Below, one piece after another: positions 29,546 to 44,482 of a stretch of 64,000 nt of DNA (position 1 is the stretch's first letter; the number at the start of each line of letters is the position of its first letter). The notes beneath the pieces are model-generated. The model was not told the DNA's origin. It saw nothing but the letters and a program-made list of their open reading frames with translations, and searched no databases. Both the position numbers and the translations under genes were made by a program. Source of the DNA: Patescibacteria group bacterium (GTDB lineage Bacteria; Patescibacteriota; Minisyncoccia; UBA6257; 2-01-FULL-56-20); the NCBI GenBank assembly GCA_024654525.1, contig JANLHI010000032.1:64172-128171 (forward strand). Direction: 5' to 3'.

Positions 29546-31300
29546 ATGGAAAAGAGGTCGTGCCAGCATTGCAAAGAACAATTTATGGTTGATGCCGCGG
29601 ATCGGAATTTTTATGCGCGTCTTGATGTTCCGCCACCGATATTGTGCCCCACGTGCAGGATGATACGGCGGCAACTTTTTCGGAACGAACGCGCACTTTA
29701 TAAGCGTGCGTGTGATTTGTGTAAAAAAAGCGTGGTGAGTATGTATGCGCCCGATTCGCCCTACATTGTCTATTGTGTTGAGTGTTACCAATCGGACAAG
29801 TGGGATTCGATGAGTTACGGGAAAGAATATGATTTTTCGCGCCCGTTTTTTGAGCAGTTCAACGAGCTGATGCATGTGGTGCCGCGACGGGCGCTCTATA
29901 TTGATTTCGCGACAGCGAGTGACTATACGAATTGGGGTGTGAATTTAAAAAATTGCTATCTCGTGTTCGGCGGGCACCATTACGAGGACTGCAACTATTC
30001 GAGTCAAAGTTTCTATCTCACCGATTGTACGGACGTGGATTTTTGCCAGCGGAGCGAATCGTGTTACGGCTCGGTGCATCTCCGGCACTGCAGTCGTGTG
30101 CGATTCAGTTCGTTCTCCGAGGATTGTTCGGATTCGTGGTTCTTGTATGGATGTCGCAATTGCCAGAATTGTATAGGATGTACCAACTTGCGGAATGTGT
30201 CGTGCCATATTTTCAATGTCCGTTACTCAAAAGAAGAGTATGAAGCAAAAGTCAAAGAATTTTGTCTTGATACCGAAGAAGGGCTTATGCGCGTGCGCAA
30301 TAAGTTTTCACAACACACATTACAGTTTCCGCGGAAGTTTGCATGGGTACGGAATGCGACGGGATCGACCGGGGATGACCTTGATAATGTGAAAGATTGT
30401 GTCCGGTGTTTTTCCGCAACGGAGGTGGAGAATTGCCGATACTCGTTCTTTATCCCTACGCAGGCGAAAGACAGTTATGACATTGACCATGTGGGGATGA
30501 GCGCGCAACTCACGCTTGAGCTCGTAAGCGGGTTTGGGACGGAGCGCGTAGCGTTTAGCAACCGCGTGTATTACACGCATGATGCCTATTATTGCGATGA
30601 CTGTTATAACTCTGCAAACCTTTTTGGATGCGTAGGACTCAAGAAAAAAGAGTATTGTATTTTGAATAAGCAGTATTCCAAGGATGAGTATGAAAAGATG
30701 AGAATGAAAATTATTGAACACATGACGCGCACGGGGGAATACGGCTTGTTTTTCCCGCCGGAACTTTCTCCTTTTACCTATAAAGAAACAGTTGCGCAGG
30801 AATACTTTACCCTCACTAAAGAGGAGGCCAGCGCGCAGGGATTTCGCTGGAAAGATTCCGAAAAAAAGCAGTATGAGCCGACCATTCATGTGGGGGATAT
30901 TCCTGCGGGCATCGGGGATGCAAAGGATTCACTCACGGGAGAAATTTTTGAGTGTTTTCATAAAGGGGGATGCAATGAACAATGCACAGAAGCGTTCCGG
31001 ATTATCCCGCAGGAGCTTCAGTTTTTGCGAAAGCTTGGAATTTCATTGCCGCGTCTTTGTCCGAATTGTCGGCACTATGAACGATTACGAATGCGAAACC
31101 CAATGAAATTATGGCGCCGTATGTGCCAGTGTACTCGCACGAATCAAGAATCAGGAAGCGAGAATCAAGCCAGATATCAGAATACCGTCACTCATTTCCA
31201 TGGAGGCGTCCCATGCCCGAATGAATTTGAAACCTCCTACGCGCCGGATAGGAAAGAGATAGTATATTGTGAAAATTGCTATCAATCCGAAGTTGTATGA
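29546..31300 (+). CDS. Cysteine-rich 584-aa protein with paired zinc-ribbon modules at both termini and a Cys-repeat core
   Basis: N-terminal CQHC...CPTC and CDLC...CVECYQSD. C-terminal CFHKGGC...CPNC and YAPDRKEIVYCENCYQSE. The two terminal modules look like duplicates of each other. The middle region has Cys every 10-13 residues. Confidence 0.6.
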   Translation: MEKRSCQHCKEQFMVDAADRNFYARLDVPPPILCPTCRMIRRQLFRNERALYKRACDLCKKSVVSMYAPDSPYIVYCVECYQSDKWDSMSYGKEYDFSRPFFEQFNELMHVVPRRALYIDFATASDYTNWGVNLKNCYLVFGGHHYEDCNYSSQSFYLTDCTDVDFCQRSESCYGSVHLRHCSRVRFSSFSEDCSDSWFLYGCRNCQNCIGCTNLRNVSCHIFNVRYSKEEYEAKVKEFCLDTEEGLMRVRNKFSQHTLQFPRKFAWVRNATGSTGDDLDNVKDCVRCFSATEVENCRYSFFIPTQAKDSYDIDHVGMSAQLTLELVSGFGTERVAFSNRVYYTHDAYYCDDCYNSANLFGCVGLKKKEYCILNKQYSKDEYEKMRMKIIEHMTRTGEYGLFFPPELSPFTYKETVAQEYFTLTKEEASAQGFRWKDSEKKQYEPTIHVGDIPAGIGDAKDSLTGEIFECFHKGGCNEQCTEAFRIIPQELQFLRKLGISLPRLCPNCRHYERLRMRNPMKLWRRMCQCTRTNQESGSENQARYQNTVTHFHGGVPCPNEFETSYAPDRKEIVYCENCYQSEVV

Positions 31301-31337
31301 GAGCAATTTTCATCCTGAGTCTGTCGAAGGGCGAGCA

Positions 31338-31358
31338 GCCTGCCTGCCGGTAGGCAGG
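31338..31358. repeat. GC-rich near-palindromic REP-like element GCCTGCCTGCCGGTAGGCAGG
   Basis: Near-identical to copies at 43337-43576. Confidence 0.6.
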
Positions 31359-31595
31359 TGTTATCAGGCGGAAGTGGCGTAGTACATATTCGCGCCGAGT
31401 TATGAATGGAACATAATGTATCGCTCCTAATTTTTTATTCATCACTATAGACAATTTCTTGACGCAGGTGCCGATTTATAGTATGAGTAAATGGCTAACG
31501 CTACTTGAAAAATCAATGGGAATATATGCAGTCTGGATACTGCACGGGTTTAAGAATGAAATGGAAATCTTGAAAAGTGGCGAAAGAAAGTATGT

Positions 31596-40266: not shown

Positions 40267-41484
40267 CTATGTGATTGAAATCCCAATTTTTTTCTTCACT
40301 TCGGCAATTTTTTTCCCCGCAACTTTTGCGGCTTTTTTCGATCCCGCCGTAAGGAATTTTTTAAGCTGATTTGGCTTGGTAATCAACTTCTTTTTCTTTG
40401 CACGGAAAGAAGAGAAGTGATTTGTGGTAAGCGTAATGAGTTTTGATTTGAACTCGGAATATGTTTTTCCGGAAAATTGTTTTTCGACTCTCGAGATAGT
40501 TTCGTCAGAAAGCGAAGAGTAGATGCGGAGAAGGTTTGCCAACGCAGGCTTATTTTCTTCATCAAATTTTACTTCCGATCCTGAATCGGTTACCGCGCGT
40601 TTTATTTTTGTTTCAATATCTGAGGGGGAGTCATCAAGGAAAAGGCATCCGTTGGGTTCCGACTTAGACATTTTGCGCGCAGGATTGCCCAAGCTCATCA
40701 CACGCGGTACTTCGGTGAGAAGGGGTTTTGGTTCAATGAATGTTTCACCCCCGCCTTCGCCGAGGCTTCGGCGGGCAGGAAATCTCGCATTAAATTTCCG
40801 CACGAGCGTGCGCGTGAGCTCAAGGTGCTGGAGCTGGTCGTCGCCCACGGGTACGAAGGCAGTGTTATAGAGGATGATGTCCGCGGCCATCAAGACGGGG
40901 TAAGTGAAAAGACCCACATTCGTATCTTCGAGCGCCTTATTTGCGGTTTTTAAGTGTCTTCCTCTAACATCTTTGATTATCGCCCCAATTTTTTGTTTCA
41001 AAAGATAGCTAGGACGTATGGGCACCTCCATTTTTTTTGCTTCTTCTTCAATCTTAGACATGAACATTTTGTCATTTACTGTTTTTTCAAGAGCGTCTAG
41101 CTCATCTTGTATTCTTTTGTCATCCTCTAATAAACCGATTTTTTCTTTGAATTGAGTCATGCGATTTAATTCGCCGAATGGAGTGGCGGTTCCCAAAATC
41201 CACGCAAGCTCGCTATGCGCGGGAATCGCTGATTGGAGCGCAACCACAGATTTCTTAGGGTCAATGCCCGCCGCGAGATAATCAGCGGCAAGGTTCAGAA
41301 TGTTCTCGTGCAATTCCTCCGGCTCTGGACTTTCCGTAAGTGCGTGAAGATCTACTATCAAAAAATAACATTGATATCTTCCGGTTTTTTGAAGTAACAC
41401 CCAGTTTTTCAAAGCACCCAAGTAGTTTCCTATATGGAGTCTTCCGGTTGGCTGAATTCCCGAGAGAAGTATTGGTTTAGACAT
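40267..41484 (-). CDS. trpS: Tryptophanyl-tRNA synthetase (long form, about 70-aa internal insertion)
   Basis: SGIQPTGRLHIGNYLGA and FLIVDLHALT at the N-terminus. KMSKS. Confidence 0.85.
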   Translation of the reverse strand: MSKPILLSGIQPTGRLHIGNYLGALKNWVLLQKTGRYQCYFLIVDLHALTESPEPEELHENILNLAADYLAAGIDPKKSVVALQSAIPAHSELAWILGTATPFGELNRMTQFKEKIGLLEDDKRIQDELDALEKTVNDKMFMSKIEEEAKKMEVPIRPSYLLKQKIGAIIKDVRGRHLKTANKALEDTNVGLFTYPVLMAADIILYNTAFVPVGDDQLQHLELTRTLVRKFNARFPARRSLGEGGGETFIEPKPLLTEVPRVMSLGNPARKMSKSEPNGCLFLDDSPSDIETKIKRAVTDSGSEVKFDEENKPALANLLRIYSSLSDETISRVEKQFSGKTYSEFKSKLITLTTNHFSSFRAKKKKLITKPNQLKKFLTAGSKKAAKVAGKKIAEVKKKIGISIT

Positions 41485-41563: not shown

Positions 41564-43222
41564 TTAAATCTCAATCACCACCGGCAGTATCATCGGCCTT
41601 CTCCTCGTCTTGTTGTAGAGGAATTGCCCCAGCTGGTCGCGAATAAGAGTCTTGAGATAGTCCGGTTCGAGCGGTTGGCTCGCGGGAAGGCGAGCGGTGA
41701 GTGCCCGGATGCGCTTGCGCATTTCTTCGAGTAGCTCCTGGTGTTCTTTGAGGAAAATGAAGCCGCGCGAAATAATGTCCGGACTTTTCAAAAGATGTCC
41801 GCCTTTGTCGCGGTCAATAGTAACGATAACCACTACCATGCCTTCTTGCGCCAATGCCCTGCGGTCGCGCAATACCACTTCTTCAACATCTCCTACTCCA
41901 AGTCCGTCCACCATTACATAGGATGCAGGCACGGTTTCTTTCGTGATGCGGAAAGTCTCTTCATTCATGGCGGCAACCTGACCGTTTTCCATAAGAAAAA
42001 CGTTTTGGCGCGGGATGCCGATTTCAACCGCGTTCTGCGCGTTCACGAAGCGCTTGTAGTAATAGCCGTGTACGGGAATGAGGAATTTCGGGTTAAGGAG
42101 TTTCATTGCGAGCTGGAGGTCTCCCTTCGTCGCATGACCCGACGAGTGAATGTCCACTATGTCGGAATGGTAAATGATAGCACCCTGCCGCGCGAGATCG
42201 TCTTTGATGGTTTGTACGCTCCGCTCGTTTCCGGGAATAACCGATGAGGAAAGCATGACGGTGTCCCCGGGTCTGATTGAAACCTGCCGGTGTTCGCCGT
42301 TGATGATTTTCATGAGCGAGGCGTTCGACTCGCCCTGTGCGCCGGTCGAGAGAATGAGAAGTTTGTTATCGCGATATTTGTGAATTTCTTCGAGGGGAAT
42401 AATCGCGCCATCTTTTGTCTTGATAAGTCCGAGGTTTTGCGCAATCTGCACGTTTGACTTCATGGAATATCCCGAGAGCGCCACATGCCGCCCGAGCTTG
42501 CCCGCAATTTTTATCACCTCGCCGATACGCGTAAGGACGGACGCGAACATCGCGACAATGATGCGCCCCTCGGCTTTTTCGAACAGTTCTTCGAGATTTT
42601 TTTCGACAATCCGCTCGGAGGGGGCTCGTTCAATGACATCGGCGCCCGTGCTGTCCGTCATAAACGCGGTAATGCCCATTTTACCCACGCGCTCCAGCTC
42701 GTCGAGGTTATACGCAACACCCTTCGCATCGTACTCGATTTTAAAATCGCCGAGACTCACCACTTTCCCTGCGGGCGTCGAGAGCACCACACCGACGGAT
42801 TCGGGAATGGTGTGTTCAACCGTGAAAAACTCCGCCTTGAAGTGATTCGAGAGCTGGATAACATCGCGCGGTTTTACGTTAACGAAAACGAGCTTCTGAC
42901 GGTTCGGGAAATCATCCTGCCGCTTTTCGATAATGGCGCGGCTCAAAGACGAAGTATAGATTGGAGGATTGCCGAGCTTATCCATCACGTAGGGCAGGGC
43001 ACCTATGTGGTCGTAATGCGCATGCGTGATAATAATCGCGCGGACATTCTCTTTGTGCGCTTCGAGGTATTCCGTATTGGGAATGATGTAATCCACCCCG
43101 GGAGTATTCTCTTCGGGGAACTGAAGTCCGGCATCAATAACGACTATTTCGTTTTTATATTCGAAAAACATCATATTGCGGCCGATGGTGTCCAATCCTC
43201 CGAGAGCCACAAAACGGAGCAT
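41564..43222 (-). CDS. rnj: Ribonuclease J
   Basis: MLRFVALGGLDTIGRNMMFFEY N-terminus, ITHAHYDHIGALPYV, beta-CASP and C-terminal domains. The ORF continues upstream to 43633 through GC-rich repeats (a possible 137-aa extension). Confidence 0.85.
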   Translation of the reverse strand: MLRFVALGGLDTIGRNMMFFEYKNEIVVIDAGLQFPEENTPGVDYIIPNTEYLEAHKENVRAIIITHAHYDHIGALPYVMDKLGNPPIYTSSLSRAIIEKRQDDFPNRQKLVFVNVKPRDVIQLSNHFKAEFFTVEHTIPESVGVVLSTPAGKVVSLGDFKIEYDAKGVAYNLDELERVGKMGITAFMTDSTGADVIERAPSERIVEKNLEELFEKAEGRIIVAMFASVLTRIGEVIKIAGKLGRHVALSGYSMKSNVQIAQNLGLIKTKDGAIIPLEEIHKYRDNKLLILSTGAQGESNASLMKIINGEHRQVSIRPGDTVMLSSSVIPGNERSVQTIKDDLARQGAIIYHSDIVDIHSSGHATKGDLQLAMKLLNPKFLIPVHGYYYKRFVNAQNAVEIGIPRQNVFLMENGQVAAMNEETFRITKETVPASYVMVDGLGVGDVEEVVLRDRRALAQEGMVVVIVTIDRDKGGHLLKSPDIISRGFIFLKEHQELLEEMRKRIRALTARLPASQPLEPDYLKTLIRDQLGQFLYNKTRRRPMILPVVIEI

Positions 43223-43336
43223 GTCGGTGGTGTCCTCGTGAGGAGTATGCGGAGCGTGGTATGAAGCCTCGTGCGAAACGATGGACTGGCGCACCTGTCC
43301 GCCGCTTTGACGAGCGCCTCTACCTGGGCGGTAAGC

Positions 43337-43576
43337 GCCTGCCTGCCGATAGGCATGGCCTGCCTGCCGATAGGCGGGATTTGGTGTTGGGTCGGCGGGT
43401 AAACTTCTTTTTCCGGGTCGGTGTGAGGGACGGGGAGGTGCAATGCGCTGGTGCCCTCCTTCGCTGGTGTGACTTGCGGGAGCGGCCTGCCGACGGGGCT
43501 CTGCCCGGCGCGCACCTGCCTGCCGGTAGGCAGGCCCCGCGTGCCGACCAGATATGCCTTGCCTATCAGCAGGCAG
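43337..43576. repeat. Cluster of four GC-rich near-palindromic REP-like repeats (GCCTGCCTGCCG[A/G]TAGGC...) in the rnj 5' extension
   Basis: Tandem copies at 43337-43354 and 43358-43375, a copy at 43515-43534, and a degenerate copy at 43557-43576. Same element as 31338-31358. Confidence 0.65.
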
Positions 43577-43684
43577 ACCCGTGGCAGGACGATCAAACGA
43601 TTTTTTTTCTGCTGGTTTTTGGTTGTTGAACATAACTGAAATGATTAATAATTTTTTACTTCTTACTACTTTTCTATCCTCTTC

Positions 43685-44020
43685 CTAATACAGTTTTCCT
43701 CCGATAACGGCATCGATTTTATCGGGAACAAGGAGTACACAACTTCCGCTGGCGTCCGGAACGCCGAGCGTCAGTACTTCGGAAGAGAAGGGGCCGATTT
43801 TTCGGGGAGGGAAGTTTACCACTCCGAGTACTCGTTTTCCTTGCAATTCCTCTTTACTATAGTGGGCGACAAGCTGCGCGCTTGATGTTTTGACGCCCAC
43901 TTCGGAACCGAAGTCCACAGTGAGTTTGTATGCGGGTTTCTTCGCTTCGGGAAAATCTTCGACCTTAATGATCGTTCCCACCCGGATGTCGAGTTTTTGG
44001 AAGTCGTCGTATGTGACCAT
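43685..44020 (-). CDS. tRNA-binding domain protein (CsaA/Trbp111-like, EMAP fold)
   Basis: DIRVGTIIKVEDFPEAKKPAYKLTVDFG...GKRVLGVVNFPPRKIGPFSSEVLTL is typical of the tRNA-binding OB fold. Confidence 0.7.
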   Translation of the reverse strand: MVTYDDFQKLDIRVGTIIKVEDFPEAKKPAYKLTVDFGSEVGVKTSSAQLVAHYSKEELQGKRVLGVVNFPPRKIGPFSSEVLTLGVPDASGSCVLLVPDKIDAVIGGKLY

Positions 44021-44030
44021 TGTTCTTTAG

Positions 44031-44114
44031 TGCTGGAGGGGAGAGTTGAACTCCCATGATCTTGCGATCGCTGGCTCCTGAAGCCAGTGCGTCTGCCAGT
44101 TCCGCCACCCCAGC
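44031..44114 (-). tRNA. tRNA-Leu (anticodon CAG)
   Basis: Cloverleaf by hand on the minus strand: acceptor GCTGGGG/CTCCAGC, anticodon stem CTGGC/GCCAG with loop TTCAGGA, long variable arm, T-arm GGGAGTTCAACTCTCCC. No encoded CCA. Confidence 0.8.
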
Positions 44115-44482
44115 TTTTAAAGCTTTTTATCTTCTGACTTTTATTATGTGTGAGAGATTGTTTTTCGTTCCTCGGGTCTTTATTTCTTACCACGTCATTT
44201 CTACGGCTTGAATGTGTTGATGGGATAAAAAATAGGGGTGAAAATTATTGGCATACTATAATCTGGATATATTTTTCTCCCGCAAAAAAATAGCGGTAGC
44301 CAGAAATTTTTTATTGATTGGTAATTATAACGGCGTATTACTCACTCGCAACACACACTACTATGCCGGCGAGGCAAGGAATCTTTAGAGGAGTGCGTGC
44401 TAATCTGAAAAAAGGAGTAATTACGTAAGTTAAGGTCAGTATACCCCGCTTCGAGTTTTATGTCAATCTTTTGGTGTTTGGG

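Follow-up and report, generated by a model that had tools for sequence, protein, structure and literature searches.

The window analysed here is the whole 64,000-nucleotide (64-kb) stretch of the contig, and the locus of interest lies on its minus strand, where a tRNA-Leu(CAG) gene (44114-44030), a gene for a 111-aa tRNA_bind protein (44020-43685), an ORF encoding an RNase J (41564..43633) and the TrpRS gene (41484-40267) are neighbours. Read from the ATG at 43633, the RNase J ORF encodes 689 aa and shows 100% identity and coverage to P0001, a protein from a Patescibacteria MAG annotated at NCBI as RNase J family beta-CASP ribonuclease; in the protein search, the exact 689-aa protein was known from one contig with a single member. 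The canonical core of 552 aa (41564..43222, minus strand), delimited by alignment with solved structures and by AlphaFold2, starts with MLRFVALGG at the ATG of MLRFVALGGLDTIG (43222-43220), and the frame remains open for 411 nt, or 137 codons, 5' of this position up to 43633, so that the coordinates and the reading given for the open frame in the earlier, sequence-only reading were correct. Residues 138-689 contain the complete domain order of an RNase J according to Pfam (Lactamase_B, then RNase_J_b_CASP with E = 4e-42, then RNase_J_C with E = 1e-29), and residues 137-689 align with chain residues 7-555 of B. subtilis RNase J1 (3zq4_A, E = 1.7e-133). The metal-binding HxHxDH motif is present as THAHYDHIG, with H204, H206, D208 and H209 invariant in an alignment of 49 sequences. 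Rfam searches, performed on the whole window at gathering threshold and on 43000-44300 at E up to 10, identified only tRNA-Leu, tmRNA, tRNA-Arg and chance sub-threshold matches, none of them relevant to this region.

The N-terminal extension encoded by the 137 additional codons (43223..43633, minus strand) is basic, with a net charge of +12, rich in Ala, Arg, Pro and Gly, and predicted to be disordered. In the AlphaFold2 model, built from the same 49-sequence alignment, residues 1-132 had pLDDT values of 28-39 and were without secondary structure, while the core was confidently predicted from about residue 133. The extension had no match in Pfam or PDB, the alignment with solved RNase J structures beginning at about residue 137. 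Comparison with relatives delimited several parts of this region, all on the minus strand: a conserved start region consisting of the ATG followed by MFNNQKPAEKKS (43598..43633), an AT-rich box, TTATTAATCA, located 8 nt 5' of the ATG (43642..43651), a conserved C-terminal part reading SIVSHEASYH (43256..43285), and an in-frame GTG (43292..43294) that might serve as an alternative start and would leave an extension of only about 24 aa. Tryptic peptides specific to the tail would include QAGHAYR, SLPADPTPNPAYR and IAPPRPSHRPGK. The GC content of the extension is 0.60-0.70 compared to 0.46 for the whole window, and two further frames are open across it (43171..43596 on the minus strand and 43261..43629 on the plus strand). 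Thus, the open frame alone is weak evidence of translation.

We therefore turn to the homologues for evidence on this point. Among the 120 best matches, all from Parcubacteria/Patescibacteria-type genomes, 111 carried a recognisable xLRFVPLGG motif, and 107 of these 111 had an extension of at least 15 aa in front of it (median 52, maximum 162). Like the tail studied here, the extensions of the 111 homologues are rich in Arg (14%) and Pro (13.7%), and the median of their net charge is +7. Only seven homologues, all in the close clade, have Met at the canonical position, which is occupied by P, A, S, V or K elsewhere; since the other 104 homologues have no Met there, their upstream part must be translated. 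Moreover, 41 of the 111 extensions contain the motif RP[RHY]I[KR]PP near the N-terminus, and its codons vary synonymously across loci (AGG/CGG/AGA, CCA/CCG/CCT and ATA/ATC/ATT), indicating protein-level selection on the peptide.

The closest relatives provide a more direct view of the start site. The genes for the tRNA_bind protein and RNase J are adjacent in the orthologous loci L001/L005 and L002-4, with TrpRS included in L001/L005, and both sets have complete 5' ends in which the ATG corresponding to 43633 and the following QKPAEKK are identical, all differences within QKPAEKKS being synonymous (CAA/CAG, AAA/AAG, TCG/TCC). The TTATTAATCA box is identical and at the same spacing to the ATG in L001/L005, and L002 has a related AT-rich ATCATTA. 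At the other end of the extension, SHEASYH is found as ITSHEASYH in L001/L005 and in a diverged form, SITDHEATHH, in L145. The extensions measure 411, 285 and 276 nt in the window, L001 and L002 lineages, respectively, all multiples of three despite large indels, and in L145 the frame is open to the contig end; hence, the frame is preserved in all four close lineages. In L001 and L145, the position of the in-frame GTG at 43292-43294 is taken by GTG and ATG, respectively. Two short gene calls among the relatives are explained by the choice of start codon (P0003) and by the contig end (P0004).

No SD sequence was found 5' of the ATG at 43633, and an SD-like GAGGA lies 10 nt 5' of the internal ATG at 43222. 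Only seven of the 47 long ORFs in the window are preceded by SD-like motifs, and as the genome is thus essentially SD-less, the missing SD at 43633 is normal and GAGGA carries little weight. A promoter scan called none 5' of 43633, with counts no higher than in shuffled sequences, and a terminator scan returned one terminator-like hairpin on the antisense strand within the repeats (at copy C, see below), again with counts not above shuffles. Downstream of the ATG at 43633, the first ~50 nt are rich in A and were predicted to be unpaired in the window and in L002, and only weakly paired in L001. Judged from these sequence comparisons, the extension is most likely translated and not a 5'UTR, and the tail is most likely an ancestral, fast-evolving feature of RNase J in the Parcubacteria/Patescibacteria clade.

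The extension of the window differs from those of its relatives in containing palindromic repeats. Scanning the 64-kb window for GCCTGCCTGCCGRTAGGC with up to three mismatches gave seven matches as compared to 0.07 expected from shuffles. Two of these within the extension are exact (43337-43354 and 43358-43375), two overlapping ones (43514-43531 and 43518-43535) represent a single palindromic copy matched on both strands, and one (43561-43578) is in inverted orientation. Comparison with copies in other genomes showed that the conserved unit is 21 nt long, GCCTGCCTGCCGGTAGGCAGG, and forms a hairpin with the stem CCTGCC/GGCAGG and the loop GGTA, which fits the description of a GC-rich imperfect palindrome of 20-40 bp. 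Four such 21-mers are found in the extension, all given here with respect to the minus strand. Copy A (43558..43578) is forward on the coding strand, encodes GLPADRQ and has four differences from the consensus, three of them synonymous. Copy B (43514..43534) is a near-palindromic hairpin encoding PAYRQAG, with one difference, which is synonymous. PAYRQAG is also encoded by copy C (43358..43378), which is in reverse orientation and has two differences, both synonymous, and copy D (43337..43357) encodes HAYRQAG, with one synonymous and one non-synonymous difference. Adjacent to copy D lies a decayed third tandem copy encoding AYRPG (43322..43336). In their context on the coding strand, the copies read GLPADRQG, GPAYRQAG, NPAYRQAG, HAYRQAG and AYRPG, so that the peptides PAYRQAG, HAYRQAG and AYRPG named in the earlier reading were all recovered, together with GLPADRQ from copy A.

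Copies C and D and the decayed copy are arranged in tandem with a period of 21 nt, or seven codons, and the description of the repeats as tandem is appropriate for these; the remaining copies are 140-200 nt away, one of them inverted, and Tandem Repeats Finder reported no array. In addition, a 47-nt internal duplication is present, the segments 43324-43370 and 43501-43547, the former from the C/D block with the decayed copy and the latter containing copy B, being 77% identical. The claim that the stretch is built from copies of the repeat is overstated, since the four 21-mers account for only 84 of the 411 nt (20%) of the extension, or 24% if the decayed copy is included. When the four copies were compared to the cross-genome consensus, seven of nine differences were synonymous in the RNase J frame, as compared to an expected fraction of 0.29 (binomial 0.0035), or six of eight if a shared change is counted once (0.009), in what is a small test comprising 8-9 changes and a consensus taken from other genomes. 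This bias towards synonymous changes among the copies points the same way as the conservation in relatives and would agree with coding use.

The 21-mer was absent from all orthologous extensions compared (L001/L005, L002-4 and L145), and the extension of the window exceeds those of L001 and L002 by 42-45 codons, the surplus coinciding with the two repeat-bearing blocks. Since the orthologues have the tail without the 21-mer and the surplus corresponds to the repeat blocks, the repeats are lineage-specific additions to a pre-existing tail. The order of events inferred from these alignments would be that the tail came first, and that the palindromes were inserted in frame and later partly duplicated. 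Of the two options raised in the sequence-only reading, the proposal that the repeats now belong to a low-complexity Arg/Pro/Ala-rich tail is favoured as far as the tail is concerned, by its family-wide occurrence, its protein-level conservation and its conserved start, but an origin of the tail itself from repeats is not supported, the N-termini of the relatives being extended without any, which is the outcome that the sequence-only reading had named as speaking against such an origin. The opposite option, a 5'UTR with a fortuitously open frame, is weakened by the conserved start and frame, although open frames come cheap in this GC-rich stretch and GAGGA does precede the internal ATG.

The 21-mer is not confined to the RNase J gene. 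The same scan of the window identified an intergenic copy with the exact consensus sequence on the plus strand (31338..31358; match span 31338-31359), which is located 38 nt past the stop of the ORF 29546..31300 and adjoins a GC-rich module, ATCCTGAGTCTGTCGAAGGGC. In total, the window thus contains one copy between genes and a cluster of four within the RNase J gene. A scan for the 18-mer across one genome per species gave at least 120 stretches from more than 100 species, and the matches listed came from Patescibacteria, Bacteroidota, Chloroflexota, Desulfobacterota-type MAGs, Omnitrophota, WOR-3, Acidobacteriota and others, including the cultured Bacteroidota Olivibacter, Thermobacterium and Salinimicrobium. 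The 21-mer was also found in long-read assemblies elsewhere, and in IMG/VR, where 12 stretches of viral contigs contained 14 exact 21-mers. Outside the window, the matches listed mostly comprised one or two copies per 8-kb stretch. We rejected the raw number of genome matches as evidence, as ~35 chance matches were estimated for an 18-mer with one R in 596 Gb. Informative, instead, were the three bases that follow the 18-mer. Although not part of the search, they were A, G and G in 112, 104 and 113 of 118 copies, respectively (88-96%), and the flanks beyond were unconserved, indicating that the genome matches are copies of one 21-nt element. The 14 exact 21-mers of the viral contigs are further evidence for a real family. 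The idea that the 21-mer is typically the apex of a longer hairpin was also rejected, a flanking stem of at least 8 bp being present in 14 of 118 copies (0.9 expected).

Insertion into coding sequence is a recurring property of this element. Among the occurrences listed, 25 of 124 are within frames that are free of stops for at least 200 codons, and eight in-frame inserts were confirmed by Pfam, namely in a class I aaRS, TilS, the ATPase domain of a histidine kinase, trigger factor, a GSDH-type dehydrogenase, TrpRS, RsmH and an epimerase. In the TrpRS of L032, the 21-mer corresponds to an exact seven-residue gap (GLPAGRQ) in the alignment with PDB 1yi8. Given that the 21-mer equals seven codons and has a stop (TAG) in only one of its six frames, it is to be expected that in-frame survivors exist. 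Full-text literature searches for the 21-mer, its peptides and the peptides of the sibling modules described below gave only chance matches.

Taken together, we consider it probable, at roughly three chances in four, that the RNase J gene starts at 43633, that it encodes an ancestral disordered, basic tail, and that a dispersed hairpin module was later inserted in frame into the DNA encoding this tail. Translation from the ATG at 43633 would yield a basic, disordered tail of 137 residues followed by a normal RNase J core. The dispersed REP-like module of 21 nt (GCCTGCCTGCCGGTAGGCAGG) would have been inserted into the tail-coding DNA in this lineage and then partly duplicated and inverted, resulting in four copies and a decayed one. 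The inserts may have survived because the module is seven codons long and stop-free in five of six frames, and because its peptides, composed of Pro, Ala, Tyr, Arg, Gln and Gly, resemble the composition of the disordered Arg/Pro-rich tail. The copies would today be ordinary coding sequence under protein-level constraint.

The best of the alternatives is that the repeat stretch is an untranslated leader and that translation starts at 43222 or at the GTG at 43294, in which case the RNA hairpins could, for example, protect the rnj mRNA from 5'-to-3' decay or allow autocontrol by RNase J. The predicted folding of the mRNA is in line with such a role, as the RNA of the extension was more stable than shuffled sequences (z = -3.25 and -3.46), copies A and C forming a long-range helix of 19 bp and copy B a hairpin, and this unusual folding of the copies could point to a function at the RNA level. 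The GAGGA in front of the internal ATG fits the same explanation, and a precedent is offered by L127, a more distant relative, where a related perfect palindrome, CTGCCTGCCGGCAGGCAG, lies between tRNA-Leu and the true start, in sequence that is indeed untranslated, and is wrongly annotated as coding in the over-long P0052/P0058. Likewise, many REPs at annotated N-termini are really extragenic (Di Nocera et al., PMC3733652). On the other hand, a leader is difficult to reconcile with an ATG and QKPAEKK that are conserved and a frame that is kept in the four close lineages, with the 104 homologues without Met at the canonical position, and with the synonymous bias of the differences between copies, and SD sequences such as GAGGA are rare in this genome. 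The orthologues have no repeats, so an RNA role would be new to this lineage, and the extension RNAs of other relatives showed no consistent excess of structure (z = +1.1 to -2.3). We therefore regard an untranslated leader as unlikely.

A compromise would be that the gene gives rise to two products, a long form with its start at 43633 and a short one with its start at 43294 or 43222, with the repeats being coding and at the same time forming a structured element by which the ratio of these products is tuned. The strong structure is predicted to lie between the candidate starts at 43633 and at 43294/43222, the mutually aligned GTG, GTG and ATG of the window, L001 and L145 would provide a start for a short form, and the restriction of the canonical Met to the close clade (7/111) could be taken in the same direction. 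Yet, the Met may equally be a neutral substitution at a variable position, and the proposal is purely inferential in a genome where an SD-type signal is not expected anyway, which makes dual use quite unlikely in our view. Finally, although palindromic repeats are hard to assemble and the exact protein is found on one contig only, a collapse or chimera at the repeats during MAG assembly is highly improbable, since the copies have diverged from each other in a codon-aware way, both flanks align to orthologues with the frame intact, and the same 21-mer is found in cultured isolates and long-read assemblies elsewhere.

Returning to the inserted hairpin module of the preferred reading, similar inserts of other sequence were found nearby and in relatives. 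The TrpRS of the window carries a GC-rich palindromic insert of 30 nt encoding PARRSLGEGG (40750..40779, minus strand), which is absent from its orthologues and occupies the same loop as the 21-mer insert in the TrpRS of L032. In the RNase J tail of P0112, a 10-residue insert, PSFAKASGDR, is located just N-terminal to RPRIKPP as compared to P0107 and P0115. The palindrome of L127 mentioned above can be grouped with these sibling modules. We speculated if the 21-mer and these siblings could be members of a hitherto undescribed class of tiny, GC-rich hairpin elements found across phyla, whose insertion would be precise, in multiples of three bases and free of target duplication, both between genes and in essential genes, and for which disordered tails would act as landing pads where they accumulate, decay and give rise to longer Arg/Pro/Gly/Ala-rich disorder. 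As to whether RNase J tails in general are made of accreted hairpins, the DNAs of nine extensions had folding z values of +1.1 to -3.5 (mean ~-1.1) as compared to ~-0.2 for core segments, which lends little support to such accretion. At present we find the proposed class of elements possible but doubtful; if real, it would be a way by which selfish or structural DNA becomes new protein sequence.

With regard to annotation, the long form is probably the real RNase J protein of this genome and its Patescibacteria relatives, and the shorter calls for close relatives, such as P0003 and P0004, are probably truncated. With a disordered RNase J tail beyond Helicobacter, the part played by such tails in RNA decay could be tested in another lineage, one that is very different and has tiny genomes. 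The locus may also offer a clean and datable case of a palindromic DNA repeat turned into protein sequence. More surprising is the occurrence of the 21-mer itself across phyla. As it lies in frame in housekeeping genes from phyla that are unrelated, one may ask how an identical sequence spreads or recurs.

The tail can be compared to that of H. pylori RNase J, as both are non-catalytic N-terminal extensions of ~130 residues that are predicted to be disordered and vary in sequence among relatives. The two show no sequence similarity, the alignment with the H. pylori structure 8cgl_A (705 aa) beginning only at residue 141 of the latter, opposite query residue 135, and the H. pylori extension is rich in Lys, Asn, Glu and His, whereas the tail described here is rich in Arg, Pro, Ala and Gly. 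In H. pylori, the extension comprises 132 aa, is disordered and is important for full activity in vitro (PMC3592473, PMC10700544). It has been called distinctive of Helicobacter (PMC3592473, PMC10700544), in contrast to the extension described here, which is clade-wide in Parcubacteria-type RNase J, often with RPRIKPP, and has acquired repeat insertions in this genome. A further parallel is RNase E, which like the present enzyme is a major mRNA-decay nuclease with a non-catalytic, basic and disordered tail, although it is a different enzyme with the tail at the opposite end. The Arg-rich disordered C-terminal half of RNase E binds RNA. The tail of H. pylori RNase J has itself been likened to the RNase E tail (PMC3592473). 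By analogy with these two enzymes, the tail probably gives non-specific binding to RNA or ribosomes, a role that has been proposed for tails of other RNases, or serves as a scaffold.

As for the repeats, GTAG- and CGTC-tagged REPs are GC-rich imperfect palindromes of 20-40 bp that are mostly extragenic, but are sometimes located inside ORFs and translated, with targets that include tRNA synthetases and N-termini (Di Nocera et al., 2013, PMC3733652), and the question of coding sequence versus 5'UTR was raised earlier for N-terminal REPs (PMC3733652). The 21-mer is likewise a short GC-rich imperfect palindrome occurring between genes and inside ORFs, but its GTAG is found at positions 13-16, inside the hairpin and not at one end, and the identical sequence is present at low density in many phyla rather than at high copy number in one species. 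RPEs are ~100-150 bp long and known only from Rickettsia, whereas the module described here is 21 nt long, has unconserved flanks and spans phyla. The two are alike in their insertion into genes: the Rickettsia RPEs are palindromic repeats found in frame in genes of functional proteins, where the added peptide is tolerated (PMC3733652), and the 21-mer is in frame in RNase J here and in TrpRS, trigger factor, TilS, RsmH and others elsewhere. In conclusion, translated palindromic repeats within genes are already known in the form of intragenic REPs and RPEs, and the 21-mer is a similar case that falls outside both definitions.

The exact 21-mer GCCTGCCTGCCGGTAGGCAGG, of which the RNase J tail carries diverged copies, is present in many phyla as well as in viral contigs (loci L006-L125 among the genome matches listed, and L133-L144 from viruses), and the sequences flanking these genomic and viral copies are not conserved. 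Among the matches listed, the carriers include Patescibacteria, Bacteroidota, Chloroflexota, Omnitrophota, Acidobacteriota and others, with cultured isolates being found among the Bacteroidota. In the window itself, an intergenic copy of exact consensus at 31338-31358 (+) is part of a composite spanning 31313-31360 (+), in which a ATCCTGAGTCTGTCGAAGGGC module precedes the 21-mer. This module is frequent in spurious ORFs of uncultured bacteria, where its translation is LSLSKG or PESVEG. Elsewhere, other GC-rich modules likewise have the 21-mer nested within them; an example is ccctctcctttggagagg[21-mer]g..ggggtgagg, found three times in one viral contig (stretches L137/L138).

The 21-mer also occurs in frame within housekeeping genes confirmed by Pfam at eight genomic loci (L011, L032, L033, L034, L046, L055, L059, and L084), the genes concerned being a class I aaRS, TrpRS, RsmH, a histidine kinase, trigger factor, an epimerase, TilS, and GSDH. 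In the TrpRS of L032, comparison with PDB 1yi8 showed that the 21-mer constitutes an exact insertion of seven residues, with no target duplication visible. The insertion lies in a surface loop, RF|GETF, and the same loop is occupied in the TrpRS of the window (405 aa; 40267-41484, -) by a GC-rich palindromic insert of 30 nt, CCTGCCCGCCGAAGCCTCGGCGAAGGCGGG, at 40750-40779 (-), which encodes PARRSLGEGG and is missing in the TrpRS orthologues of L001/L005, two loci carrying close RNase J orthologues. Compared to these 362-aa orthologues, the window TrpRS additionally contains two insertions of ~22 and ~15 residues that are not GC-rich.

Regarding translation of the RNase J tail, an SD-like tetramer was identified 4-13 nt upstream of the start in only 7 of the 47 long ORFs of the window, the start regions of these ORFs being AT-rich instead, and the source genome appears to be largely SD-independent. 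An in-frame GTG at 43292-43294 (-) is located ~24 codons upstream of the canonical Met, and the same aligned codon is GTG in L001 and ATG in L145, another close orthologue locus; this codon is a possible alternative start.

Of the 111 RNase J proteins of Parcubacteria type analysed among the best 120 homologues (P0012-P0120; loci L126 and L128-L132), 41 share a conserved short linear motif, (E)RP[RHY]I[KR]PP[AE][IV], which is positioned 5-37 residues from the N-terminus and shows synonymous codon variation. In the clade of the window this motif is lost or has QKPAEKK in its place. In one such protein, P0112, the tail carries a 30-nt insert (L126, 440-470) encoding PSFAKASGDR directly before RPRIKPP, which is missing in the homologues P0107 and P0115; this insert is an independent landing of a GC-rich module in the same disordered tail of RNase J. 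The opposite outcome to that in the window is represented by the more distant relative L127, where a perfect palindrome, CTGCCTGCCGGCAGGCAG, at 1550-1600 falls in the gap separating tRNA-Leu from the actual start of RNase J (MIRRNP...) and is a repeat in the 5' untranslated region, albeit annotated as coding in P0052/P0058 ('QLPAGRQAT').
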